Virus record (IMG/VR): IMGVR_UViG_3300034069_000533
Span: 65,947 to 129,946 of that record
DNA: 64,000 bases
DNA from: a virus
Taxonomy: Duplodnaviria; Heunggongvirae; Uroviricota; Caudoviricetes
Reading direction: 5' to 3' (one strand)
The translations under genes were made by a program, and so were the position numbers. Positions 5,156 to 64,000 of the stretch are shown in pieces. The notes below the pieces were generated by a model. That model saw only the letters and a program-made list of their open reading frames with translations, searched no databases and was not told the DNA's origin. Position 1 is the stretch's first letter, and the number at the start of each line of letters is the position of its first letter.

Positions 5156-5232
5156 GCGGGCTTATTCCAATCGGTAGAGAAATGCAGCTTAAACCTGTTA
5201 CAGTGTGGGTTCGAATCCCACAGCCCGCACCA
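5156..5232 (+). tRNA. tRNA, class-I architecture with 7-nt loop cTTAAac (anticodon UAA, Leu-type) and encoded CCA
   Basis: Acceptor gcgggct/agcccgc, T-arm gtggg-ttcgaat-cccac, discriminator A plus CCA; hand-folded. The variable arm is only 5 nt, unusual for tRNA-Leu. Confidence 0.55.
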
Positions 5233-5284
5233 TTCATCGCTTGACCATCCATCCCGCAACCATTAAACCCCAAATCAGCGCTAC

Positions 5285-5358
5285 GCTCCCGTAGCCCAAT
5301 TGGCAGAGGCGTTAGGTCTAGGCCCTAATCAGTGTTGGTTCGAGTCCGACCGGGAGTA
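5285..5358 (+). tRNA. tRNA, class-I architecture with loop tcTAGgc (anticodon UAG, or CUA if shifted); C33 is non-canonical
   Basis: Acceptor gctcccg/cgggagt (one G-U pair), anticodon stem ttagg/cctaa, T-arm gttgg-ttcgagt-ccgac; short variable arm. Confidence 0.5.
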
Positions 5359-5379
5359 TTTCGCGCTTTTTGGTTTTAT

Positions 5380-5453
5380 CAGAGCGTAGCTCAGCTTGGT
5401 AGAGCGTTTGCTTTGGGAGCAAAATGCCGTTGGTTCAAATCCAACCGTTCTGA
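5380..5453 (+). tRNA. tRNA-Pro: tRNA-Pro (TGG)
   Basis: D-arm tagctcagcttggtagagc, anticodon loop tTTGGGa, T-loop ggttcaaatcc, acceptor cagagcg/cgttctg. Confidence 0.75.
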
Positions 5454-5459
5454 TTTTAT

Positions 5460-5540
5460 GGTAAGGTGGGCGAGTGGTTGATGCCGTCAGACTGTAAATC
5501 TGATCCTTCGGGCGCGTTGGTTCGAATCCAACCCTTACCA
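5460..5540 (+). tRNA. tRNA-Tyr: tRNA-Tyr (GTA), class II with long variable arm
   Basis: Acceptor ggtaagg/ccttacc, anticodon stem tcaga/tctga with loop cTGTAAa, variable arm tccttcgggcgc, T-arm gttgg-ttcgaat-ccaac. Confidence 0.75.
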
Positions 5541-6344
5541 TTACCTCAAAACCTGCAAGCCAGGGAACACCGGCTCAGAATTACACCGGCAACGAATCTC
5601 GGAACCGGGCTTAATGCCCGGATCACTCCATTTATAGGTTTTGCCATCACGCACCCGATGCGTTGGTCTAACGCGCTCATCTTGGCTAGTGCGCCAGATA
5701 TATTCGTCAATGCCAACCGAACGCTGCCGCATTTCGGCTAGCTGGCCATTCAATCGGCCAATCTGATCGCGCGCAATTAACTCAGCCCGACTACGGCCAA
5801 CGCCCGCGCGATCCTGCACAATCTTTGCAAGGTCTTTCATGGACGCGCCTTGCGTAAAGGCTCGCACCATTTCCCCACGCATTTGCTCAATAATGCGGTC
5901 AGGGATTGATTTAATTAATGCTAAGTTTTCCTGTTCCCACGCTTGTAGCATACCCGCCAATTGCGGCTCGCCGCGCAGAATATCCACCCCATATGCCGCC
6001 CTTACCTGCTTTCGCCAATCGGTTAGGTTCTTTGCATTAATCTGACGGCCAATGGGTTGAACGGTATTTAAGCCGTCTAGCAGTCTTTTTGCGATCTTAT
6101 CTGCGACGCCAAGCAAAAAACTAGCTAGCGTGGAATACCATGCGTCAACGCGCTGGTTACGCTCAGCGGCAACATCAGCAATAATCATCGGGCCAATGGT
6201 TTTTAGATCATTAAGCGCCGCGCGCTCCAAATCATTAACGATAGCTAGCAGCTTCGCTTTATATTCTAGCTCTGCCGTTAATGGGTAGCGAAGCGGCGGA
6301 ATTTTATTCTTCCGCCGCCGCACCATGGTTGCCGCTATGGCCAT
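5541..6344 (-). CDS. phage head morphogenesis protein, Mu F-like / SPP1 gp7 family
   Basis: 267 aa; C-terminal signature RVRPTHRVRDGKTYKWSDP...CRCNSEP is typical of Mu F-like minor head proteins; sits between portal and scaffold. Confidence 0.6.
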   Translation of the reverse strand: MAIAATMVRRRKNKIPPLRYPLTAELEYKAKLLAIVNDLERAALNDLKTIGPMIIADVAAERNQRVDAWYSTLASFLLGVADKIAKRLLDGLNTVQPIGRQINAKNLTDWRKQVRAAYGVDILRGEPQLAGMLQAWEQENLALIKSIPDRIIEQMRGEMVRAFTQGASMKDLAKIVQDRAGVGRSRAELIARDQIGRLNGQLAEMRQRSVGIDEYIWRTSQDERVRPTHRVRDGKTYKWSDPGIKPGSEIRCRCNSEPVFPGLQVLR

Positions 6345-6856: not shown

Positions 6857-8231
6857 TCCCTGCCAGGGTATCGTTGCCGCCCGTTACCGTATCGCCAGCG
6901 TTGGCCGGATTAGCCGGGTCAAGCGGCTCATCGGGCAACGGCGGCTCATATACGGTATTCTTTAAATCCAATTCAGGAAAAGCAAGGTCGGCACCGGAAC
7001 GCGCTTCCTCTGGCGAAATCGCCTCAATATCGCGGCCAATCTGCAAAGCCTCCATGGTGGTTTTGCGGGCATTGGCTTTGATTTGATCGGTTTCCGCCAT
7101 TTCCTTTGCTGATGGAGAAAACAGCGAGCCAAATAGCAAGCGCCATGTCTCAGGCTCGCTTTCCTTGGCAACCTTTTGCGCCCATAGCAGCCCGGCCAGA
7201 TATTCAATTGCCGGGCGCATATTGCGCTCATGAATCGAGCGAATAAGCGAGTGATAAATAGATTGCTCGCCCTCGCCCCGGCTGCCTAATCCCTTAATGT
7301 CAGAGCCAAACAAAATAACTTGCGGGATTTTGGACGAAGCAGATAGCGCGGTCTGCATCGCGCCAACCACAATATCAATACCGCCAAGGCTCAGGTCAAT
7401 AATGGTATATTTATCGCCATCACCCTCGCCGTTGCCCGGCCCGCCATCAATGGTGATGCCATTCAGTAAGCCGCGCACCGCATCAGTCAGCGCGATTTTG
7501 TCACGGACGATGCTTTTGCCTTCTTCAGAGCCAAGCAATTCCGAAAGTCCGGCCATGGAATGCACCGCCTGCTGTTTCCGCTTCATAATCTCGCGGGCAA
7601 GCTGCAAGCACGTCCGGTAATTGCTCAGGTCTTCGTGGCAGGCGCCAAGCACGGACTTGCCCTGCCAGGGCAGATTGGATGCTACCCGATAATTACGGCC
7701 TGACTTGTCGCCGGTAAACTTAATCAGGCGACTTTCATGCACCACAAATGGCAAGCCGTATTCTGGCGATAGCTCATAAAAAACCGGATGCCCGTAATTT
7801 TTCAGCCGGGCATCGGTGTAACGCTGCTCCCTGGCATTAATAGACATGCCGGGATAAGGGATAAGACTATCAATAACCTCAAGGTTATTTATATCAATCG
7901 GCTCGCGTAAATCTTTGCCATCTTGTGCCAGAATAAACAGCGCAGAAGCGCCACGCAAACGAGCAAGCCGAATTGCCTCGTTGATTGCTGCAAAAGCGTC
8001 AATCCGATCAAACTCATTTAGAATAAAGTTATTTTCGTCACCTTCAATGGTAAAGCCGCAGGATACCGCGTCATCCGCTGGCTTCTCAACAATGGTGGCC
8101 GCAATACCGTCGCGCTCATAAAGCCATTCGGAATCAAAAAACAAATGATTATTGCTGAGAGCGCCATAGGGCCGCATGCCAGAAACAACGTCTAGCAGTC
8201 CATCGGCGCGAATGCCGCTCATCTGATTCAT
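6849..8231 (-). CDS. phage portal protein (DUF1073-type)
   Basis: 460 aa, directly downstream of the large terminase with overlapping stop/start; size and acidic C-terminus fit a portal. Confidence 0.55.
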   Translation of the reverse strand: MNQMSGIRADGLLDVVSGMRPYGALSNNHLFFDSEWLYERDGIAATIVEKPADDAVSCGFTIEGDENNFILNEFDRIDAFAAINEAIRLARLRGASALFILAQDGKDLREPIDINNLEVIDSLIPYPGMSINAREQRYTDARLKNYGHPVFYELSPEYGLPFVVHESRLIKFTGDKSGRNYRVASNLPWQGKSVLGACHEDLSNYRTCLQLAREIMKRKQQAVHSMAGLSELLGSEEGKSIVRDKIALTDAVRGLLNGITIDGGPGNGEGDGDKYTIIDLSLGGIDIVVGAMQTALSASSKIPQVILFGSDIKGLGSRGEGEQSIYHSLIRSIHERNMRPAIEYLAGLLWAQKVAKESEPETWRLLFGSLFSPSAKEMAETDQIKANARKTTMEALQIGRDIEAISPEEARSGADLAFPELDLKNTVYEPPLPDEPLDPANPANAGDTVTGGNDTLAGSA

Positions 8232-11200
8232 CTTAATAGCGCCTTCGCTCTTTCTAGTGCCGAAGTCTTAACTTGCACAATTTCAAATGCGTCGCTTAAT
8301 CCGTCAACAATATCATCATGCGCACCGCCGGGAAACGTACCTAATTCTTCTAATAAAAACCTATTCCAATCGCCGCGAAGCATAAAAACATTGCCTGCAT
8401 TAACCTGACTGGCAAATGGCGCGGCGCGCGTTGCCTTGTCGCCGGTCGGCCGGGAAATGCTGATCTTGTAGCCCGCCAGTTTGCGTGACAGGTATTGGAC
8501 TTGCGCCTTACCAGCTTGGCCAGGGTCTTGCGGCAAGCGGATGGTGACGTTTTTGCCGTCCTGGCTGGCTGTCCCTGTAAGCAATCGCTCAACATCATCC
8601 GGCCCGCCACGCTCGCGCTTAAGGTCGGCAATGACGTAGCCGCCATTGGGCATCCTGCCGAGTAAGGGTCCAGCGGTCCAGTCTGGATCACGCCCGCCGG
8701 TTTCTGCGGTGCTGGCCAAATCCCAAGCGCGGCAAAACGTGCAACCGACAGGGACCGCATCAATGATTTGGATATTGCCGGTTTTAAAAATGGAGCCTTC
8801 CAACGGGCGCGGGCTTTGCTGGTAAAGCGAAAACCAATCGCGCTGACCGGGGCCTTTTTCGGACTCGGCTTTGATCTTTAGGATTTCAGCAGCGTAGCCG
8901 TAAGAATCGTCGGCCCATAACATTTCGCCCGGAGCGCGGCCTAATTGATCGTTTTCTTCGGCAATGGCCGGGATTTTAATGACTTCCCAATCGCCAAAAT
9001 CATCTTGTAATAATCGTCCAGCTAAATCGTCCTCGTGCCAGCGTGTATTATGGCTAACCAAGCCATTTGCAATAAAATTTTCTGTATTCGCAATTTGAAC
9101 GTCAAAAACCTCCTCAACCCCCGCCGGGGTTATCGTCTGGATTTGGTCTAGCGTGAAGTCGCAAATAGGCGGCAAGCGCATCTGCGGCTTCTGACGTTTT
9201 AATATAGCCTGCTGCAAGGTTGCAATCATTGCAGAGAAGCGCCCGCACTTTGCCGGAATCGTGGCAATGGTCAACGCACAATTTTCCGCCCCAATGGGCG
9301 CGAACGTTTTTGCCGGGAGGTTGCCCGCAAACAGCGCATAATCCATTTTGCTGCTTAACAAAGGCGTCGTAAATTTCTGCTGTAATTCCGTAGCGGTGTT
9401 TAATATGCGCCGCGCGCCTGTCTTTAGCATTAACGGAAGGCGGTCGCACGCCATCCGCCCAACGCTTTTTATTGTAATGAGACGCGCAATATCCGCGCAC
9501 CCTAACCGGCTTGCCGCAGCCCTCATGGGCGCAATTGATGCCTTTCCACTTACCCCATTGGCCCGGAAGATTTCTTGCCCCTGGCGTAAGTTTCTCGTCC
9601 TGATCCATTGCGGCTGTCCATTAACGCTCACAAGGAACGGATGCCTTGCGTTTGCCCGGACAGTTTTACCCGAAGTCATCTTGATTTCAAAGACTGGATC
9701 AGGACCATTATTTTTCCAGTTTAGCACTTTTGATGTTGACAAAACGCCATTATCATATGTCGCAACATTGTCGCCAACCCGAATGTCCCTAAGCGGCCTC
9801 TCTGATCCATCGTGCATTAAAACCGGAGTGTCGCCGGTCATACACTGGACCAAGCACACGGACGCGCCCGGCTTTAAACGAGTGCGTAAATCGGCCCTAT
9901 ACCAGTTATAAGCCTTTTCCCGATATGTCGGGCTGTCAGCGTCAGCCCGTGACTTTACCGGGTCATCAATAATAGCGCAGTTATGAACAAGTAAACCATT
10001 TGCAAAAAAGCATTCCGTATCTTCTATTTGCAAATCATAAACGTCTTTTTCTCCGCATACTCGCTCAACCATGGCCACAGAATCACAGACGGAATTGAAC
10101 GCTCCGCTGCGTGAAGTTTGGTGTGGCATGAGCGACAAAGAATAACTAAATTCTCTAATCTGTGATCCGTTGGATTCATATTTATATGATGCACATTCGG
10201 GTTTTTGTCCGAATTGCACACCACGCATTTCAAACTGTCGCGCTCCCAAATCTTCTGTTTCGCAGCAAACCATTGCCGCGTCATGCCGCGATCCGATCCG
10301 TTCCCGTGCCGCCAAGCTGGATTTGCTTTGCCCTTCATTAATTCCGAATGGCTGGCGTTCTTGCATTTCACACTGCAATAAGCCCCGGTTCCCGCATGCG
10401 TCTTCGGCGTGAACGTATCTCCGCATGCTTGACAAGCTCGCGCCAGAATGGGCTTGCGTCTCATGTCCGCAGCCTTGCGGACCCCATCCACTCGACAAGC
10501 TTCTGAGCAAGTTGAACGCGTGCGAGGCATTCCCTCCAACGAATTGCCACAAGCTACGCAGGTTCGATCCAGCATCCCCCGCGCCGCGTTCGTCGTGCGA
10601 GTTGAGCATGTTTTGCCGCAGTAAAGTGGCCGGTCGGGGAATTTCCTGACTTCCGCCGCAAGCCTCTCGCCCGGCGCTTGGCATCGCGCGCAGGAGAACG
10701 TCAGCCACAGCGAGGGACGCAGCTTGTGTCCAACCGTTAGCAGTTTTGAATCTATGGTTTCCCGTTGCTTCAACCACTTTTCCAGCGGCAGAGCTAATCC
10801 GCCAGATATTCGCGGACTTGCGCCTAGCGACAGCAACCACTCGCTTAAAAACTGTTTTATTGGTGCGTTCGTCATAAGACAAAACATAGCCGGTTTTCGT
10901 GCCGGGCAAAACGTCTTCAATCGGGACTTCACCTAACGGTGTCGTTACCATCGTTCCCGCAACGATGCAATCTGCACGGAAGCCAGCAATACCGCCACCA
11001 ACACCGGCAGATTTATAAGTGCATCCGTTGGACGCGCTCCACATTTCTACAGATTCATTTAATAGGCCATAACCTAAAATATCTTCATTATCTTTAATCA
11101 TTGTCTGCACACGCTTGCTAAATGAATCAGCAAGCGATGACGTGTGCGAAGCTGCCAAAATATTCCTATTGGGAAAATTCAGCATATACCATGCTGGAAA

Positions 11201-11476
11201 CAATACGCTAACGTAAGTAGATTTGGCCGATCCTGGCGGCATCGTAACGATTAATCGCTTAATGTCACCACGCGCCACGGCTTCTAGTTTGGAAATTAAA
11301 AAACGATGGTGAAGCGCTGGCTCCTGTTTTAAGGGATGCAACGCATACGTCGCCCAATCAGTTAAGCTTGCTTTTATCCGGCGTTTCAGAATCTCCGTCA
11401 GCTTGACTCGCAAGGAAGCTGGCAAGTTCGTCTCTAAAAGCCGCGTCAAGTTCTTCGTTGTTAAGTGCTGCGACAT
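8228..11476 (-). CDS. terL: terminase large subunit interrupted by two inteins
   Basis: Walker A PPGSAKST in the N-extein. Intein 1 runs from C-IVAGTMVTTPLG (block A), through TGNH (block B), to FANGLLVHN-C. Intein 2 runs from C-MTGDTPVL through ARHPF to FIANGLVSHN-T. The C-extein resumes with TRWHEDDLAGRL, a terminase nuclease motif. The reading frame stays open for 1082 codons. Confidence 0.75.
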   Translation of the reverse strand: MSQHLTTKNLTRLLETNLPASLRVKLTEILKRRIKASLTDWATYALHPLKQEPALHHRFLISKLEAVARGDIKRLIVTMPPGSAKSTYVSVLFPAWYMLNFPNRNILAASHTSSLADSFSKRVQTMIKDNEDILGYGLLNESVEMWSASNGCTYKSAGVGGGIAGFRADCIVAGTMVTTPLGEVPIEDVLPGTKTGYVLSYDERTNKTVFKRVVAVARRKSANIWRISSAAGKVVEATGNHRFKTANGWTQAASLAVADVLLRAMPSAGREACGGSQEIPRPATLLRQNMLNSHDERGAGDAGSNLRSLWQFVGGNASHAFNLLRSLSSGWGPQGCGHETQAHSGASLSSMRRYVHAEDACGNRGLLQCEMQERQPFGINEGQSKSSLAARERIGSRHDAAMVCCETEDLGARQFEMRGVQFGQKPECASYKYESNGSQIREFSYSLSLMPHQTSRSGAFNSVCDSVAMVERVCGEKDVYDLQIEDTECFFANGLLVHNCAIIDDPVKSRADADSPTYREKAYNWYRADLRTRLKPGASVCLVQCMTGDTPVLMHDGSERPLRDIRVGDNVATYDNGVLSTSKVLNWKNNGPDPVFEIKMTSGKTVRANARHPFLVSVNGQPQWIRTRNLRQGQEIFRANGVSGKASIAPMRAAASRLGCADIARLITIKSVGRMACDRLPLMLKTGARRILNTATELQQKFTTPLLSSKMDYALFAGNLPAKTFAPIGAENCALTIATIPAKCGRFSAMIATLQQAILKRQKPQMRLPPICDFTLDQIQTITPAGVEEVFDVQIANTENFIANGLVSHNTRWHEDDLAGRLLQDDFGDWEVIKIPAIAEENDQLGRAPGEMLWADDSYGYAAEILKIKAESEKGPGQRDWFSLYQQSPRPLEGSIFKTGNIQIIDAVPVGCTFCRAWDLASTAETGGRDPDWTAGPLLGRMPNGGYVIADLKRERGGPDDVERLLTGTASQDGKNVTIRLPQDPGQAGKAQVQYLSRKLAGYKISISRPTGDKATRAAPFASQVNAGNVFMLRGDWNRFLLEELGTFPGGAHDDIVDGLSDAFEIVQVKTSALERAKALLR
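9114..9608 (-). CDS. HNH endonuclease ORF nested in intein 2 of terL, in a different frame
   Basis: 164 aa with CAHEGCG...CASHYNKKRW...CAVCGQ...LCVDHCHDSGKVRALLCNDCN, a clear HNH/EndoVII-like signature; frame offset relative to terL. Confidence 0.55.
   Translation of the reverse strand: MDQDEKLTPGARNLPGQWGKWKGINCAHEGCGKPVRVRGYCASHYNKKRWADGVRPPSVNAKDRRAAHIKHRYGITAEIYDAFVKQQNGLCAVCGQPPGKNVRAHWGGKLCVDHCHDSGKVRALLCNDCNLAAGYIKTSEAADALAAYLRLHARPNPDDNPGGG
10024..10932 (-). CDS. Zn-finger/HNH endonuclease ORF nested in intein 1 of terL, in a different frame
   Basis: 302 aa; the C-terminal half has several CxxC pairs and CVVCNSDKNPNVHHIN...DHRLENLVILCRSCHTKLH (HNH); the N-terminal ~90 aa overlap the Hint N-domain and look non-protein-like. 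Confidence 0.45.
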   Translation of the reverse strand: MKSRLKTFCPARKPAMFCLMTNAPIKQFLSEWLLSLGASPRISGGLALPLEKWLKQRETIDSKLLTVGHKLRPSLWLTFSCARCQAPGERLAAEVRKFPDRPLYCGKTCSTRTTNAARGMLDRTCVACGNSLEGMPRTRSTCSEACRVDGVRKAADMRRKPILARACQACGDTFTPKTHAGTGAYCSVKCKNASHSELMKGKANPAWRHGNGSDRGMTRQWFAAKQKIWERDSLKCVVCNSDKNPNVHHINMNPTDHRLENLVILCRSCHTKLHAAERSIPSVILWPWLSEYAEKKTFMICK

Positions 11477-29596: not shown

Positions 29597-29720
29597 CTTG
29601 GCGTAGGACGCGATTGCATCAGCAGGGAGCGGAGGTTGCCGGTTTGGAGTCCGGCCAGCGCCATTCGGGGCTGTAGCTCAACATAGAGCGCCGTTAAGCT
29701 TCGCATCCGATTATTTCCAG
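29597..29720 (+). ncRNA. Y-RNA-like RNA with permuted tRNA-like module, unit 3
   Basis: 5' cTTGGCGTAGG...GATTGCATC; T-arm-like gccgg-tttggag-tccgg; acceptor-like cagcgcc/ggggctg; D-arm tagctcaac-atagagcg; 3' ...TTATTTCCAG. Confidence 0.5.
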
Positions 29721-29759
29721 AATTCCCCTTTGCTGTGTTGGTTGCCGATCAGCGGGCAT

Positions 29760-29819
29760 CTTGGCGCAGGCTTCGGTTTCATCTCCGTAACATGAAAAAC
29801 CGCAGCCGATTATTTCCAG
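29760..29819 (+). ncRNA. Y-RNA-like hairpin RNA, unit 4 (stem only, paralog of unit 1)
   Basis: cTTGGCGCAGGcttcGGTTTCATC ... GAAAAACCGCAGCCGATTATTTCCAG. Confidence 0.55.
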
Positions 29820-29858
29820 ATGCCCGCTTAACGGCGCCTCGATTAAAAGAGTGGTTAT

Positions 29859-29990
29859 TTTGGCGCAGGTTTCGGTTTCATCAAAAGCAGTGTGCCGTTG
29901 GTTCGATTCCAACCAGCCTCCCCAAAATTTATGGAGGCTGTAGCTCAGTGGTAGAGCAACCGCCAGTAGACCGATACCGCCTCTTTCCAA
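29859..29990 (+). ncRNA. YrlA-like Y RNA with canonical circularly permuted tRNA-like domain, unit 5
   Basis: 5' TTGGCGCAGGtttcGGTTTCATC, then T-arm gttgg-TTCGATTCC-aac, acceptor 3' cagcctc, loop ccccaaaatttat, acceptor 5' gaggctg, D-arm tagctcagtggtagagc, then 3' aaccgcc...CTCTTTCCAA. This T-arm / acceptor / D-arm order is a tRNA opened at the anticodon loop and closed at the acceptor end. Confidence 0.65.
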
Positions 29991-30027
29991 ATAACCGCTC
30001 TTTTAATTAGGTCTGTAAAGTGGTTTG

Positions 30028-30175
30028 CTTGGCGTAGGATTTGGTTGCATCGCAGCGCGCGGGTTCGATTCCCGCACAGTCTCAAGCCTAGGCAGCCGGG
30101 AGATTGTTGGGCGAGTGGTAAGCCAGGGGGAGCAATCCCCCGCTTCGGCAATATGCTAATTCCGCTAAATTTCCA
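30028..30175 (+). ncRNA. Y-RNA-like RNA with permuted tRNA-like module, unit 6
   Basis: 5' cTTGGCGTAGGatttGGTTGCATC; T-arm gcggg-TTCGATTCC-cgc; acceptor-like cagtctc/gagattg; D-like ggc-gagtggtaa-gcc; 3' ...TAAATTTCCAG. Confidence 0.5.
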
Positions 30176-30319: not shown

Positions 30320-31753
30320 ATGTCTCGCATCAACGTCGCCCGGTCTTCCGGCGTATCCCCGTTCGTTCCGCACGAAGCGGGCGCCAATCAGGCGCTTTCC
30401 GCTGAGCAGACGCTAGAGCGGCTTGTGTCGTGCTGCCTGCTTGGCGAGGATCAGTTTTATCTCAACGGCCAGTCCGTCCAGACTGCGATTGCTGAGGTCG
30501 CCAAGCAGGTTAAGCCGGAATTTGTGGTGTCGCTCGCCGTCAAGGCGCGGCTTGAGCTTGGGCTGCGGCATGTCCCGCTGCTGCTGCTGACGCTCACGCT
30601 CGATACCGACGCGGGGCGCAACGCCATCCGCAAGCAGGCGGCGCCGATTCTGCGCACGCCGAAGGATGCGATGGATTTGCTGGCGCTCTACTGGCGAGCG
30701 GGCAAGCGTCCGGTGCCGCACGTTTTCAAGCAGCTTTTCCGTCAGCGCTTCGCGGTTTGGTCTGACTACCAAATCCAGAAGTATGGCACGCTATCGGCGC
30801 GCGTTAGCGTCCGGCTGCGTGATGTGCTGCGGCTGTGCCATGCCGATCCGCGCAATTTTTACTCCAACGCTCTGGCTGATGATCGTAACGCAATTACTGT
30901 TGCGCGCGAGGCTTTGTTTAAGTCGCTGACCGACGACACCATTCGCGCGCCCGACACCTGGGAGTCCGCGCTGTCTGCGGCCGGGCCGGATGGCGACAAG
31001 CGCGCCATTTGGGAGCGGCTGTTGGCTGAGCGGAAGCTTGGCGCGCTGGCGCTGGTCCGCAACCTGCGGAACATGGAGGCGGCCGGCGTCACCCCGGCGC
31101 TCGTGATCGCGGCCATGGAGACGGTCAAGGCGGGCGACGTATGGCCCTGGCAGGCTCTAGCGGCGGCGCGTGAGGCCCCGACCTATACGCACGCCCTGGA
31201 TGCCCTCATGCTGCGATCTGCCGGCTCCCTGCCGCGCCTGCCGGGGCATACGGGCGTGCTGGTAGACGTGTCGGGGTCCATGGATCACGGGCTGTCCACC
31301 AAGGGCACGATGAAGCGCATGGACGCGGGCGCCGGGCTTGCCGTGGTGCTGAATGAGGTTTGCGAGGCGTCCACCATCGCCAGCTTTTCCGAATCCGTGG
31401 TGCTGGTTTCCAGCATCGCCATAGGCAAGCGCGGCGCGGGTCTGGCCAGCGACATTGTACGCAGCCAGCCGCATGGCAGAACCTATCTGGCGCAGGCGGT
31501 GGAAACCTTCCTGCGCTGCCATCCGATCATTGACCGGCTGGTAATTCTGACCGACGAACAGGCGCAGGACCACTTCACGTCCCCGCCGAATTTGCCGGTG
31601 TATGTCGTCAATCTCGCGTCCACTGAGCGCGGGATGAACATGCAACAGAAGGTAACGCGTATCAACGGTTGGTCCGGCAATGTTATTCGCTGGCTGGCTC
31701 AGGATATTGCCGGCACCATCGGGCAGGTTGGCGACGGTAGCGAGGAAGATTAA
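30320..31753 (+). CDS. rsr: Ro60-related protein (TROVE domain plus vWA domain), Rsr ortholog
   Basis: The N-terminus NQALSAEQTLERLVSCCLLGEDQFYLNG aligns with the Ro60/Rsr N.xGG.A..L....L.RFL.LGSEGGTYY block. The C-terminal vWA has a MIDAS-like DVSGSM. Y-RNA-like genes lie immediately upstream, and the terminator gccgggcagtaatgcccggcttttttt follows. Confidence 0.75.
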   Translation: MSRINVARSSGVSPFVPHEAGANQALSAEQTLERLVSCCLLGEDQFYLNGQSVQTAIAEVAKQVKPEFVVSLAVKARLELGLRHVPLLLLTLTLDTDAGRNAIRKQAAPILRTPKDAMDLLALYWRAGKRPVPHVFKQLFRQRFAVWSDYQIQKYGTLSARVSVRLRDVLRLCHADPRNFYSNALADDRNAITVAREALFKSLTDDTIRAPDTWESALSAAGPDGDKRAIWERLLAERKLGALALVRNLRNMEAAGVTPALVIAAMETVKAGDVWPWQALAAAREAPTYTHALDALMLRSAGSLPRLPGHTGVLVDVSGSMDHGLSTKGTMKRMDAGAGLAVVLNEVCEASTIASFSESVVLVSSIAIGKRGAGLASDIVRSQPHGRTYLAQAVETFLRCHPIIDRLVILTDEQAQDHFTSPPNLPVYVVNLASTERGMNMQQKVTRINGWSGNVIRWLAQDIAGTIGQVGDGSEED

Positions 31754-33610: not shown

Positions 33611-33685
33611 TGGTTGCCCTGCCAGGATTCGAACCTAGACCCTCGCATTCAAAGTGCGATGTTACTACCGTTAAACTACAGGGCA
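33611..33685 (-). tRNA. tRNA-Gln: tRNA-Gln (TTG)
   Basis: Minus-strand read: acceptor tgccctg/cagggca, anticodon stem tcgca/tgcga with loop cTTTGaa, T-arm ctagg-ttcgaat-cctgg, encoded CCA. Confidence 0.7.
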
Positions 33686-33966: not shown

Positions 33967-34155
33967 TTAGCGCCGCCTAGCGTCCTCAAACAATGGCGTC
34001 AGGACAACCGCGAGCGCCGTCATGGCTACGCCCAATATTGCGGAAGCGAGAATTGGCACCGGCCCAAAAATCTCGCCAAAGAAGTAAGCAAAATTAACCG
34101 TAAACCCAATAATCAGAATAGCAGCCAGATAAAGCGGCATGTTTTTCTCCCTCAC
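33967..34155 (-). CDS. small membrane protein
   Basis: 62 aa with two hydrophobic helices; translationally coupled upstream of the SPFH gene. Confidence 0.35.
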   Translation of the reverse strand: MREKNMPLYLAAILIIGFTVNFAYFFGEIFGPVPILASAILGVAMTALAVVLTPLFEDARRR

Positions 34156-35081
34156 TTCCCTTCAACGCTGCCGGGCAGCATCATCATGGGAGTCGGCCCG
34201 GAGCCACCGAAAATCTGCCGGGGCATGGCGCCGTCCCACCGTTCAGCCTGCCGCAACCGCACATAGCTGTCGCCAGCGGCCCCAAGCGCTGCCGCCTGCG
34301 CCCGAATGGCACCAGCCTCAGCCTCACCCCGGAGCGCGATGCTGCGGGCCTCTGCGGCTGCCTGTAGCTCGGTCGCCTGCGCCTTGGCCTTGGCCTCGGC
34401 AACCGCGCTGTCAGCCCGCCCACGCGCCGCCTGAATGGCAGCGTTGGCCTCACCGCGCGCCGCATCCTCGCGCGTCTTGGCCTCCGTCTCAACCTGCGCC
34501 TGCCGCTGCTGCGCGATGGCCGCAGTGTTTACCGCATCACGGAATTCCTTGGAGTAATCAAAATTATCAAGTCGCAGGTCGTTAATCAGGATGCCATAAC
34601 GCTCCATCGCTTCTGGCTTCACGCGCTCAAAGATTGCCTGCTGAATGCGCGCCCGACCGCCGGGCAATTCCTCAGCGCGATGCGTGCCAATCTCAGCCTT
34701 GGCGCGGGCAACAATCAGGCTGGCGAGTAGCGCCTCAACGTTGCCGCGAATACGCCATACCTGCTCAACGTTGGCTTCCGGCACGATCCAATCAACCACG
34801 AAATCAACGTCAACGTGCTGCGGCTGGTTGCCGCTGGTAAACACTTCCAAATTCTTCAGCGTAAGAATGCGATTGGTCAAGCTAATATCGTCAACGCCGT
34901 CAATAAACGGCACCTTAAAGCCCATGCCGGGCTGAGCAATGCCGACAAAAGCGCCATTGCGGGTCAACACCCCACGCTCAGTGGCATGCACGTTGTAGAA
35001 GCTGCCGCCAATGGTGGTAATGCCAACCAGCCCAACCACGCCGAGAGCGGCAACACCGCCAATAAATCCAGCATTCGACAT
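34152..35081 (-). CDS. SPFH/band-7 (stomatin/HflK-like) membrane protein
   Basis: N-terminal TM segment, SPFH core, C-terminal Ala/Glu-rich coiled coil (AQVETEAKTREDAARGEANAAIQAARG...). Confidence 0.6.
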   Translation of the reverse strand: MSNAGFIGGVAALGVVGLVGITTIGGSFYNVHATERGVLTRNGAFVGIAQPGMGFKVPFIDGVDDISLTNRILTLKNLEVFTSGNQPQHVDVDFVVDWIVPEANVEQVWRIRGNVEALLASLIVARAKAEIGTHRAEELPGGRARIQQAIFERVKPEAMERYGILINDLRLDNFDYSKEFRDAVNTAAIAQQRQAQVETEAKTREDAARGEANAAIQAARGRADSAVAEAKAKAQATELQAAAEARSIALRGEAEAGAIRAQAAALGAAGDSYVRLRQAERWDGAMPRQIFGGSGPTPMMMLPGSVEGK

Positions 35082-61424: not shown

Positions 61425-61474
61425 CACCGCATCGCATCCGGCGATAAAGCCCAAAAGTGAGAAAGGATCAAAAA

Positions 61475-61780
61475 ATGTCTGACGTTGTGAACACCGAGGT
61501 TGCCGAGGCTTTCGACGCGCTCAAGACCAAGCTGAAGCAAGTTGCCATGGCTGGCAAGGCTGTGGATATGCAGCGCAATATCAATTACGCTGTGGCGGTT
61601 GAGGCGCTTGAGGAGACGTATAATGCTGGCCATCCGGTTGGCGGCGTGAAGCCTGCGGGCGCGAAGCGCGGTCGTAAGCCGAAGAATGCCGCGACCGAGG
61701 CCAGCCCGGAGGGCGAGACTGCCGCGACCGAGGTTGAGGCTTCTGCCGAGGCTGAGGGTGGGCGGCGCCGCCGGGGCTAA
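61475..61780 (+). CDS. AT-hook-like acidic protein
   Basis: GAKRGRKPKNAATE AT-hook-like motif followed by an acidic tail; RBS gagaaagga. Confidence 0.4.
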   Translation: MSDVVNTEVAEAFDALKTKLKQVAMAGKAVDMQRNINYAVAVEALEETYNAGHPVGGVKPAGAKRGRKPKNAATEASPEGETAATEVEASAEAEGGRRRRG

Positions 61781-62057
61781 TCCCCTAGAGTAAGAGAAAG
61801 CCCGCGCTGGTTCACTGGCGCGGGATTTTCTTTAAAGTAAAAAAGGAAAAAAATTCAATGCAGAAGGAAGCCACCAACATTATTAATTTGCATGCCGCGC
61901 GGGACCGCCGCAACGCGTTCGCCATCCCCTGCCCGCCGCCGGGCAGTCTGATCTACAGCCGCACATGGCCTAGCCGCTGGTTGAATTACCCGCGCATTAT
62001 TGGCCCGTCGCGTCGTCTGTGGATTTGGTTTTAAAAATAGAAAAACGGAGAAGGAAA

Positions 62058-62213
62058 ATGCAAACAATTGCTAGCTATATATATGCTTTTTTTGTAACCA
62101 TTCTCAGCGTTATGTTTATTTTTTACGGGAAAGCTACAAATATTTTATCATTTATTTTTATATTTACATTTTTGACTTTTGCTTTTATTACAGTAAAGGC
62201 AGTTTTGCCTTGA
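62058..62213 (+). CDS. 51-aa hydrophobic membrane protein (very AT-rich)
   Basis: RBS ggagaagga; two TM-like segments; GC far below genome average. Confidence 0.35.
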   Translation: MQTIASYIYAFFVTILSVMFIFYGKATNILSFIFIFTFLTFAFITVKAVLP

Positions 62214-62764
62214 GCGGCGCAATCACATTGGCGATGTTTCTGCAACTGGCCGGGGCCAGTTGCGAGATTGCGCCGCACACTCTGGCCAGCCTGAGCTTTG
62301 CCGAGAGCGGCGGCGCAGGCCAGACGCTTGACTCACTGGCTATCAACATTAACGGGCCGGGTGGCGGCACGGTAAGGGGGATCAGGACGAAGGCGCAAGC
62401 CATGGCGAAGGCGCGCGAGTTAATCCGCGCTGGCAGGGACTTTGATGCGGGTGTTGGACAAATTAACGTCCGCAATTGGCGTTGGCTTGGCGTGACGGTT
62501 GAGACGGTATTTAACCCGGCAGATAATATTGCCGCGCAATGCCGGCTTTTGCAGTCATACAGCCGATACAATACGGGATCACCCGTCCGTGGCGTGGCTA
62601 ATGGCTATGTCGGACGGATTGTCAGAGGCGCAGCCAGCGTCAGGGAGGTTGCTCGGCAATCCGCCGCGTCAACACCCCGGCGCGACGCTAACGCATGCCC
62701 TAGCCGCTCCCGCGTGGCGGTATGGGGCACGTCGCCCCGACAGGCACGGTGCCGGTCGGGATAA
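62210..62764 (+). CDS. lytic transglycosylase (SLT domain; VirB1-like)
   Basis: SLSFAESGG ... GVGQINVRNW catalytic-region motifs. Confidence 0.55.
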   Translation: MSGAITLAMFLQLAGASCEIAPHTLASLSFAESGGAGQTLDSLAININGPGGGTVRGIRTKAQAMAKARELIRAGRDFDAGVGQINVRNWRWLGVTVETVFNPADNIAAQCRLLQSYSRYNTGSPVRGVANGYVGRIVRGAASVREVARQSAASTPRRDANACPSRSRVAVWGTSPRQARCRSG

Positions 62765-62784
62765 TTCTGCATGGAAACAAACCG

Positions 62785-63063
62785 ATGGATAATAACACTT
62801 GGCGTAAGCTTAATATTGTCTGTTTAACGCTTCTGGCTTGCTTGTTTTCCGTTACTGCCAGCGCTGATGTTATTGGCGCCATGTCGGCAGTAAGCACGGA
62901 AATGATTGGTTGGGTACAGACTGGCGCGATTATCGTTGTTATTATTTCCGCTATTGCGGTGGCAACTGGTCGCGCTTCGCTTCTTGGTTTGGCTGGTCTG
63001 ATTATTGGTCTTGCGGTTGCGGCTCAGCCGGAAACCTTCGCCAATCTGATTACTAGGTCTTAA
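62785..63063 (+). CDS. VirB2/TrbC-like pilin
   Basis: Signal peptide ending ASA, then two TM helices; size and topology of T4SS pilins. Confidence 0.45.
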   Translation: MDNNTWRKLNIVCLTLLACLFSVTASADVIGAMSAVSTEMIGWVQTGAIIVVIISAIAVATGRASLLGLAGLIIGLAVAAQPETFANLITRS

Positions 63064-63064
63064 A

Positions 63065-63412
63065 ATGTCCATTTCAGTCGAGCAAGAAATAGAAACGCAT
63101 ACCATCCAGCTTGCAGACACGCGACCGACGATGATTGGTATTCCGTTTTTGGGCGAAATACCAATTGTGCTAGGAGCGCTGGTTTTCGCAATCTTTGGCT
63201 GCGCCTATGTCTTGTTCGGCTGGAAATGGGCACTTGGCTTTCCGGCGGTGTGGTTTGGCGTGTCAAGGCTAATTGCGCTTGACTACCACGCAATTACCAA
63301 ATTTGACTTGTGGCGCAACACAAGCGCGTGGAACCTAGACACAAAGACGCACGGCGGAAATTCGGTGACGCCGTTTCCGCTGTATCCAAAGCGCCCAAAA
63401 GGTATGAGATAG
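63065..63412 (+). CDS. VirB3/TrbD-like T4SS protein
   Basis: ADTRPTMIGIPFLG resembles the VirB3 ATRPALFLGVP motif; ALDYHA resembles ERDYNA; hydrophobic core. Confidence 0.5.
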   Translation: MSISVEQEIETHTIQLADTRPTMIGIPFLGEIPIVLGALVFAIFGCAYVLFGWKWALGFPAVWFGVSRLIALDYHAITKFDLWRNTSAWNLDTKTHGGNSVTPFPLYPKRPKGMR

Positions 63413-63483
63413 CAAATTAGGTGTTGCGCACGATTAGAATTCTGCTAAGCTGTTTGTGTTGAGCAAGCAGAAGGAATAGACAA

Positions 63484-63843
63484 ATGACGCTTTCCGTTGT
63501 TATTACCCGCGAGGGTCTTTTGGTTTCCGGCGCCATGAGCAGCGCCGATGATGTTGACTTCGTTATCAAGTCGCTGCGGGCGGCGCAGGAGAGTCTTTTT
63601 CCGGTTGGGCGCATGCACTCGGTCACGCTGCGCCATGTGCCGGATGATCGGCGGATTAATACTATTAAGGAAGTCCGCGCGTTTACCGGCCTTGGACTGA
63701 AGGAAGCCAAAGATTTGGTTGACAAGGTTTCCGCTGGTAATCCGACCATTGTTGCCAGCATGTTGCCCCACAATGACGCGGTACGCGCCCGGTCTGCGCT
63801 TGAGTCACACGGTTGCGCCGCTGATATTTCCCTTGTTGCGTAG
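63484..63843 (+). CDS. protein with ribosomal bL12 (L7/L12) C-terminal-domain-like region
   Basis: [28 protein letters not shown]...[12 protein letters not shown] aligns with bL12 CTD [30 protein letters not shown]...AEALKKALEEAG; the N-terminal half is unrelated. Confidence 0.5.
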   Translation: [119 protein letters not shown]

Positions 63844-63860
63844 AGAAGGAACATGAAACA

Positions 63861-64000
63861 ATGCCGCACCTGACTGATTACTTGCCCGCCAAACTGAGGG
63901 AGGCGGTTGGTTGGTGCGGCGGGGGAGAAAGCGAGCCGTCGCGCTTCTTCCCTTATTTCGATCATGTGCGGCCCAATGTCATGCTGTTACGCGACGGCGG
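63861..64000 (+). CDS. partial ORF running off the window
   Basis: ATG at 63861 stays open to the window end. Confidence 0.2.
   Translation, partial: MPHLTDYLPAKLREAVGWCGGGESEPSRFFPYFDHVRPNVMLLRDG

Follow-up and report, generated by a model that had tools for sequence, protein, structure and literature searches.

The stretch analysed here (the window) comprises 64,000 nt of a virus record assigned to Caudoviricetes (IMG/VR IMGVR_UViG_3300034069_000533, positions 65,947 to 129,946). In it, an open reading frame (ORF) of 119 aa, situated between the virB3-like and virB4 genes of a type IV secretion system (T4SS) operon, encodes a protein having the C-terminal domain (CTD) of ribosomal protein bL12 and no detectable ribosomal anchor. 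According to the ORF list, this bL12-CTD ORF occupies 63484..63843 on the plus strand (stop codon included) and starts with ATG; a Shine-Dalgarno (SD)-like sequence, GAAGGAA, was read off the sequence at 63470..63476 (+), 7 nt 5′ of the start codon. Neither a sigma-70-like promoter nor a terminator was found in the 71-nt upstream or the 17-nt downstream spacer, and a possible regulatory leader hairpin folded no better than shuffled sequences (z 0.8); with none of them significant, a dedicated promoter, terminator or leader hairpin was rejected. The GC content, overall and at third codon positions (GC3), was inside the range of the neighbouring genes. The product, with a mass of 12.7 kDa and a pI of 6.9 as compared with 4.6 for E. 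coli bL12, is best explained as a soluble accessory protein of a mobile element. The exact protein was also present in one JGI contig of 129,946 bp and, at 100% DNA identity to the window, in two short Logan contigs. On the opposite strand, a 182-aa ORF (63417–63965, −) spans the bL12-CTD ORF and both flanking spacers; its sole match was the antisense of the orthologue (locus L004) described below, it had no other database support, and it is probably spurious.

Identity of the domain

Pfam PF00542 (Ribosomal_L12 CTD) matched residues 46–115 at profile positions 2–66 of 67 (E 2.7e-14), with a score of 53.6 bits as against a gathering cut-off of 25.9, and phmmer against all PDB sequences returned bL12 chains only, the top one being that of T. 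maritima (1dd3, E 5e-7). The initial annotation had noticed that a mobile element encodes a homologue of the bL12 CTD, and had named weak, short similarity in a profile search as grounds for dropping it; the match obtained covers the full domain and is far above chance, so that the observation is confirmed. Its placing of the domain at about residues 57–119 held as to homology (the 20-residue string that it quoted corresponds to residues 61–80). The start needed correction, as the domain begins earlier, at about residue 44–46. The bL12 CTD fold (beta-alpha-alpha-beta-alpha-beta) extends over residues 44–119 (63613..63840, +) and contains a 4-residue insertion, SAGN, after helix 5. By whole-domain profile match and fold, the 119-aa protein belongs to the PF00542 domain family.

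It is not the bL12 ribosomal protein itself, failing in anchor, hinge, score and locus. PF16320, the bL12 N-terminal dimerisation/uL10-binding domain (NTD), gave no match in the 119-aa protein even at E<=10, and TIGR00855, the full-length bL12 equivalog, matched residues 46–115 only, with 39.9 bits as against a cut-off of 84.4. In place of a flexible Ala/Gly/Pro/Glu-rich hinge, a linker of about 5 residues (PVGRM) leads from the helix at 21–38 to the strand at 44–51, and the gene is flanked by the virB3-like and virB4 genes instead of lying in an rplJ or rpoBC cluster. Two other assignments were rejected. Membership of ClpS (PF02617) had no Pfam match at E<=10 and showed structural likeness only, at 7–14% identity. 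Recent capture from a host rplL was discarded because identity to any bL12 over the full domain was 57% or less, GC and GC3 were ordinary, and the orthologue had already diverged by 63%.

Structural model and N-terminal module

A single-sequence AlphaFold2 (AF2) model was poor, with a predicted local distance difference test score (pLDDT) of 55, and a model based on a 14-sequence alignment was used instead (mean pLDDT 86.5, predicted template modelling score (pTM) 0.60). This model has a beta-beta-alpha unit (residues 2–38), a linker of about 5 residues and a beta-alpha-alpha-beta-alpha-beta unit (44–118); the structural model proposed in the initial annotation thus displays the bL12 CTD fold for residues 44–118. 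The N-terminal module (residues 1–43; 63484..63612, +) is predicted to form a beta-hairpin and a helix (strands 2–8 and 11–17, helix 21–38; pLDDT about 73–87) and is not the bL12 NTD. In hhalign comparisons, residues 1–46 (query plus orthologue profile) gave a probability of 0.7% with a bL12 NTD profile and of <1% with a CTD profile built from 113 canonical bL12 sequences. Therefore, the N-terminus is neither a degenerate anchor domain nor the remnant of a second head, and both candidates, a degenerate bL12 NTD and one half of a second CTD (cf. the tandem protein P0003), were rejected. An alignment of the N-terminus to the bL12 NTD by MAFFT was apparent only and was judged forced. The module is covered by no solved structure, and with this part of the protein as phmmer query the sole match among 268 retrieved proteins was the orthologue, P0239. 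Together with the absence of PF16320 and the restricted TIGR00855 match, the hhalign result bears out the earlier statement that no bL12 dimerisation or L10-binding region is present. The best explanation of these comparisons is a novel module that replaces the dimerisation/uL10-anchoring domain and the hinge of bL12.

Conservation of the factor-binding face

Comparison with E. coli bL12 (in mature numbering) revealed that helix 4-loop-helix 5, a stretch of 23 residues (57–79; 63652..63720, +) corresponding to bL12 residues 65–87, was identical at 16 of 23 positions, as against 9 of 45 in the remaining CTD. The same contrast between helix 4-5 and the rest of the domain was repeated against P0239, helix 4-5 being identical at 16 of 23 residues. 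In E. coli bL12, K65, V66, I69, K70, R73 and G77–D85 are the residues which we take to mediate the binding of EF-Tu, EF-G, IF2 and RF3; the bL12 residues for binding of these factors are reportedly those described by Kothe (2004), Diaconu (2005) and Helgstrand (2007). Twelve of these 14 positions (I69, K70, R73 and G77–D85) were identical in the 119-aa protein, and the other two carried conservative replacements (K65 to R57, V66 to I58). According to PMC6110070, K65R is an exception to the loss of ribosome activity caused by other Lys-65 substitutions. As judged from the sequence, the translational-GTPase-binding helix 4-5 face is nearly intact. The initial interpretation is thus supported in part: homology, the mobile-element setting and the missing NTD hold, and the titration or decoy role that it also put forward would be a candidate function.

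Relatives and family size

A HMMER scan of 1.84 billion representatives yielded 1,473 matches. Among the 268 proteins retrieved, P0239 (121 aa) alone shared the N-terminal module; the two proteins were 37% identical over 109 residues, a stretch that takes in the beta-beta-alpha part (pairwise E 9e-20). Having the same architecture and length, P0239 is the sole detectable orthologue. Closer relatives of either P0239 or the 119-aa protein were searched for and none was found. Another protein, P0268 (149 aa), had the head in common, including a VSAG-type insertion, and its N-terminus was different. P0239 is encoded on ENA contig NODE_147, a phage-like contig of 102 kb with genes for GcrA, GapR, RusA, DnaB, HNH and Tad3, and its gene is located within a run of small genes downstream of a helix-turn-helix regulator, in a phage early region. 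It differs from the 119-aa protein in lacking the SAGN insertion and in having no T4SS genes nearby: none was found over the 20 kb examined. Between this 20-kb locus and the window, the only similarity besides the orthologous pair consisted of weak HNH-type matches. Present in two unrelated elements, the family is thus an accessory gene of phage-like elements, both rare and mobile. GcrA as well as GapR are proteins of Alphaproteobacteria; because of their genes on the P0239 contig, and because the nearest relatives of the VirB4 protein of the window are on Roseomonas and Rhizobium plasmids, the hosts are probably Alphaproteobacteria.

Other scans extended neither the family nor its setting. 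Viral-contig scans with the bL12-CTD query and with a VirB4 fragment revealed no related loci, and the VirB4 fragment had no match in a metagenome-contig scan. The query detected, in a scan of genome and metagenome contigs, canonical rplL genes having the word INTIKEVR in common; a sensor-kinase-like ORF among the seven translated scan loci was unrelated and discarded as a chance match.

The wider set of matches was dominated by proteins lacking the ribosomal anchor: 145 of the 150 best-scoring representatives (among the 1,473 matches) were without bL12 NTD and had 1–7 heads each. P0121–P0160 (loci L050–L054) are metagenomic and genomic proteins with 3–7 complete CTD repeats, no NTD and fused modules. 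In them, the heads are combined with a Ser/Thr kinase (P0129, matching PADLOC PD-T4-6 models), with a KAP NTPase (P0133, matching QatA/PifA models, in a cassette of the order KAP, 147-aa ORF, KAP+3xCTD), with a PNP_UDP nucleosidase and pentapeptide repeats (P0160, matching the PADLOC 'Effector' model, of the PN superfamily and CBASS-effector-like), or with LRV/HEAT repeats (P0121 and P0130). Such combinations suggest a bait or targeting function for the bL12 heads of immunity-like proteins. It was also noticed that P0003 (166 aa; L003, 925–1425) contains two tandem CTDs, that in several proteins (P0127, P0137 and P0201) a helix 4-helix 5 hairpin of 19 residues is repeated 3 or 4 times, and that at least one of these, P0127, begins with a hydrophobic segment, membrane-spanning in appearance.

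Position within a T4SS operon

Upstream of the bL12-CTD ORF, on the same strand, were a gene for a VirB1/TrbN-like lytic transglycosylase (62210..62764, +; tblastn 43% identity, E 2e-25, to its annotated counterpart in a Roseomonas plasmid T4SS operon), one for a TrbC/VirB2-like pilin (62785..63063, +; PF04956 E 8e-5, below the gathering score, at the same position as in the plasmid operon) and, directly adjacent, a VirB3-like gene (63065..63412, +). The pilin start is that called on Logan contig L001, the longest ORF beginning at 62722. The VirB3-like product resembled the annotated VirB3 of Roseomonas plasmid NZ_CP024583 (36% identity over 113 aa, E 9e-13) and had a weak PF05101 match. Downstream, the VirB4/TrbE ATPase gene starts at 63861 and extends beyond the window (63861..64000, +); its continuation on L001 (449 aa) matched PF03135 (CagE_TrbE_VirB, E 4e-20) and was 36.5% identical to the Roseomonas-plasmid VirB4. 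In the Roseomonas plasmid operon, which is syntenic and represents the closest plasmid T4SS, the virB3 and virB4 genes overlap and no gene separates them; the bL12-like ORF has therefore been inserted into an operon that is canonical in other respects. Among PLSDB plasmids, homologues were true rplL only, on records classed as plasmids that were of chromosome size or annotated with rplL. On the evidence of the Roseomonas operon and PLSDB, the initial remark that such a domain is unusual in a T4SS context holds. The protein has PF00542 as its sole Pfam match and its operon position is not conserved, which does not agree with a core T4SS component (VirB1–VirB11/VirD4). Since the flanking spacers are short and without promoter- or terminator-like site, the gene is most simply read as inserted cargo that appears to be co-transcribed with virB2-virB3-virB4.

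The remaining part of the window is phage, including genes for a major capsid protein, a portal, a large terminase with intein domains and a DUF2213-family (PF09979) protein, and a phage-type replication module (AAA_24/DUF669/SNF2/DUF3987). The phage-like genes run from 158 to 60941 (−), whereas the T4SS operon (61457–64000, +) starts at a divergent Cro-like switch, the Cro-like regulator adjoining the operon. No integrase was found among the ORFs scanned between the two regions. The element may be a phage-plasmid, a phage with conjugation genes, or a prophage abutting an integrative and conjugative element. The 119-aa protein counts as virus-encoded, with the proviso that the T4SS and phage genes may be adjacent elements and not one replicon.

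Other features of the window

The large terminase gene (8228–11476, −; 1,081 aa) carries intein/Hint domains at two places, Hint_2/PT-HINT at about residues 169–262 and Intein_splicing at 553–809, followed by a C-terminal Terminase_6C nuclease domain; its domain composition indicates that it probably contains two inteins. A TROVE/Ro60-like gene (30320–31753, +) is preceded by YrlA-type Y-RNA-like elements (29630–30154, +), of which the top one, at 29860–29986, scored 37.4 bits (E 1.8e-6, under the Rfam gathering score). Weaker copies lie at 29630–29694 and 30029–30154, together with a tRNA-like Rfam match of 151 nt (29934–30084), and the whole looks like a phage-borne Ro/Y-RNA module. The window has five tRNA genes: a cluster at 5156–5541 (+; Leu-TAA, Leu-TAG, Pro-TGG and Tyr-GTA), between head-morphogenesis genes on the opposite strand, and a separate tRNA-Gln(TTG) at 33611–33685 (−). 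A gene for an SPFH/Band 7 family protein is located at 34152–35081 (−), in the middle of the phage-like region.

Possible functions

Because no anchor was detected, we infer that this bL12 stalk head, with its nearly intact factor face and joined to a novel beta-beta-alpha module, would act off the ribosome. Through helices 4-5 it would bind, in competition with the ribosomal stalk, proteins whose usual docking site is the stalk head; candidates are the translational GTPases EF-Tu, EF-G, IF2 and RF3, or effectors captured by the stalk, for instance Cami1-type RelE nucleases. The N-terminal module may let the protein associate with itself or attach it to a further product of the element. The pay-off would be either that host translation is modulated or that a stalk-dependent defence is blunted. 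We give such off-ribosome binding and competition a probability of about 0.4.

Several points speak against it. The invariant core residue F54 of bL12 is His in the 119-aa protein, and the charge is near neutral where that of bL12 is acidic. The retention of helix 4-5 may partly reflect constraints of the fold or ancestry instead of a kept interaction, and conservation statistics are thin because the family has two members. The pTM is only 0.60, and in the model the N-terminal module might cover the helix 4-5 face. PADLOC, which comprises defence-system models only, had no match for either the query or P0239. Isolated CTD reportedly binds factors weakly (Helgstrand and co-workers, 2007) and EF-Tu is very abundant, which makes it improbable that the protein simply titrates EF-Tu in bulk; one would sooner expect a partner of low abundance. 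With regard to such partners, CRISPR-associated Cami1 has been cited among L12-mediated interactions (PMC12179292), and the bL12 chain of the structure of Cami1 bound to cyclic tetra-adenylate (cA4) and the 70S ribosome (PDB 8phj) was among the sequence and fold matches. L12/ClpS insertions have likewise been described in vWA conflict proteins (Kaur et al. 2020, PMC7159879). By analogy with Cami1, the head fusions and the vWA proteins, a conflict-related role is conceivable. The more specific proposal, that the protein is a decoy directed against the host, intercepting stalk-captured effectors (Cami1-type CARF-RelE) or blinding immune proteins that have bL12-head arrays as integrated baits (such as the kinase, KAP-NTPase and nucleosidase fusions above), seems decidedly improbable.

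The conserved factor face would also suit a protein that goes to the ribosome, its N-terminal module binding the stalk base or host bL12 in a non-canonical way so as to add or replace a factor-recruiting head and to favour translation of the element, which is the 'auxiliary translation gene' reading applied to phage bL12. That the element invests in translation, with its five tRNA genes, would fit as well. We nevertheless regard this as unlikely, considering that the module has no likeness to the uL10-binding NTD, that a linker of some 5 residues leaves no flexible hinge, that the acidic character of bL12 is lost, and that a tagged phage bL12 was not purified with ribosomes (PMC6375957). Alternatively, the two-module architecture with its family-specific N-terminus, and the position of the gene between virB3 and virB4 without promoter or terminator consensus of its own, could indicate a tethering adaptor, in which the CTD captures a host GTPase (e.g. 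EF-Tu) and the N-terminal module docks it, as a cofactor and not as a target of inhibition, on a machine of the element, namely VirB4 or the inner-membrane complex in the case of the T4SS, or else an early protein of a phage. EF-Tu is said to be a cofactor of mobile or secreted systems in Q-beta replicase and with the type VI secretion effector Tse6. As P0239 is encoded in a phage early operon without T4SS genes in the 20 kb examined, a T4SS-specific partner is unlikely, and related T4SS operons function without such a gene; the adaptor is accordingly rated quite unlikely.

Reuse of the fold as a ClpS-like N-degron/protease adaptor, or for some other protein-protein interaction, is very unlikely, given 7–14% identity to ClpS as compared with 35% to bL12, the lack of a ClpS Pfam match and conserved residues that are exactly the bL12 helix 4-5 motif. 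Still harder to credit is a non-functional passenger, a decaying captured piece of host rplL with no selected role. The tiny family, with two singletons among the 1.84 billion representatives, and the replaced F54 would agree with decay, but the ORF is intact with an SD, the AF2 model retains a confident, foldable structure, and a full-length orthologue of 37% identity in an unrelated element shows the same conservation pattern and the same kind of non-rplL N-terminus. No bL12 is more than 57% identical over the full domain, and in composition the gene does not stand out from its neighbours; it is therefore old and maintained.

Phage bL12 domains were catalogued in 2019, and the 119-aa protein offers a clean minimal case for their role: it is small, its factor-binding face is intact, an anchor was not detected, and an unrelated phage has an orthologue. 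If it is a competitor or decoy, mobile elements would manipulate the factor-recruiting step of translation, or defences exploiting that step, and the non-ribosomal bL12-head arrays fused to defence-type enzymes would acquire a meaning. Were the decoy proposal correct, phages or conjugative elements and the bacterial immune system would contend over the bL12 head, a point of conflict not recognised before. If it is neither, it is one more uncharacterised accessory gene.

Comparison with known bL12-type proteins

With the CTD of bL12 itself (PF00542; 1ctf, 8yeq and 1dd3), the 119-aa protein shares the fold (root-mean-square deviation 1.3 Å, 35% identity) and, almost identically, the helix 4-loop-helix 5 motif that binds EF-Tu, EF-G, IF2 and RF3. 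Unlike bL12, it has no NTD or hinge, is encoded outside the rplJL operon, is near neutral instead of strongly acidic, carries the SAGN insertion after helix 5 and His for F54, and falls below the TIGR00855 cut-off. ClpS, the adaptor of ClpAP, is more distant, having 7–14% identity and no Pfam ClpS match; the conserved motif of the 119-aa protein is that of bL12.

Multi-repeat bL12-CTD proteins and the vWA insertions likewise represent a non-ribosomal, NTD-less use of the domain. The former are large, cellular and fused, with 2–7 tandem CTDs, whereas the 119-aa protein is small and element-borne and has a single CTD.

The 119-aa protein is best grouped with the bL12-domain proteins encoded by viruses and mobile elements. 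Together with bS21, bL12-domain proteins are the commonest virus-encoded ribosomal proteins (Mizuno et al. 2019, PMC6375957). According to that study, many consist of PF00542 alone, such as those of RSB3 (98 aa), DFL12phi1 (106 aa) and DSS3P2 (107 aa), and others have the domain within larger proteins; the EF-binding residues are kept, diverse genomic contexts suggest repeated acquisition, and ribosome affinity purification via a tagged phage bL12 protein failed (PMC6375957). Our own searches agree: BFVD contained several viral bL12-CTD proteins, four PHROG families of unknown function matched the helix motif, and low-stringency tblastn detected the motif in rIIB-like proteins of N4-like enterophages, in roseophage R7L and in Streptomyces phages. 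The initial view that a bL12 CTD is unusual in a phage was therefore incorrect. Like the proteins of Ralstonia phage RSB3, Dinoroseobacter phage DFL12phi1 and roseophage DSS3P2 and the rIIB-like fusions of N4-like enterophages, which are short NTD-less PF00542 proteins or fusions, the 119-aa protein has PF00542 without NTD, in a window bearing phage genes, and retains the EF-G/EF-Tu-interaction residues. No close sequence relationship exists, since tblastn to those phages gave E 6e-3 or worse and aligned the helix motif only. The class of phage-borne bL12 proteins is thus already described, and what is new, in distinction from the catalogued viral members, is an N-terminal module of its own and a place inside a T4SS operon.
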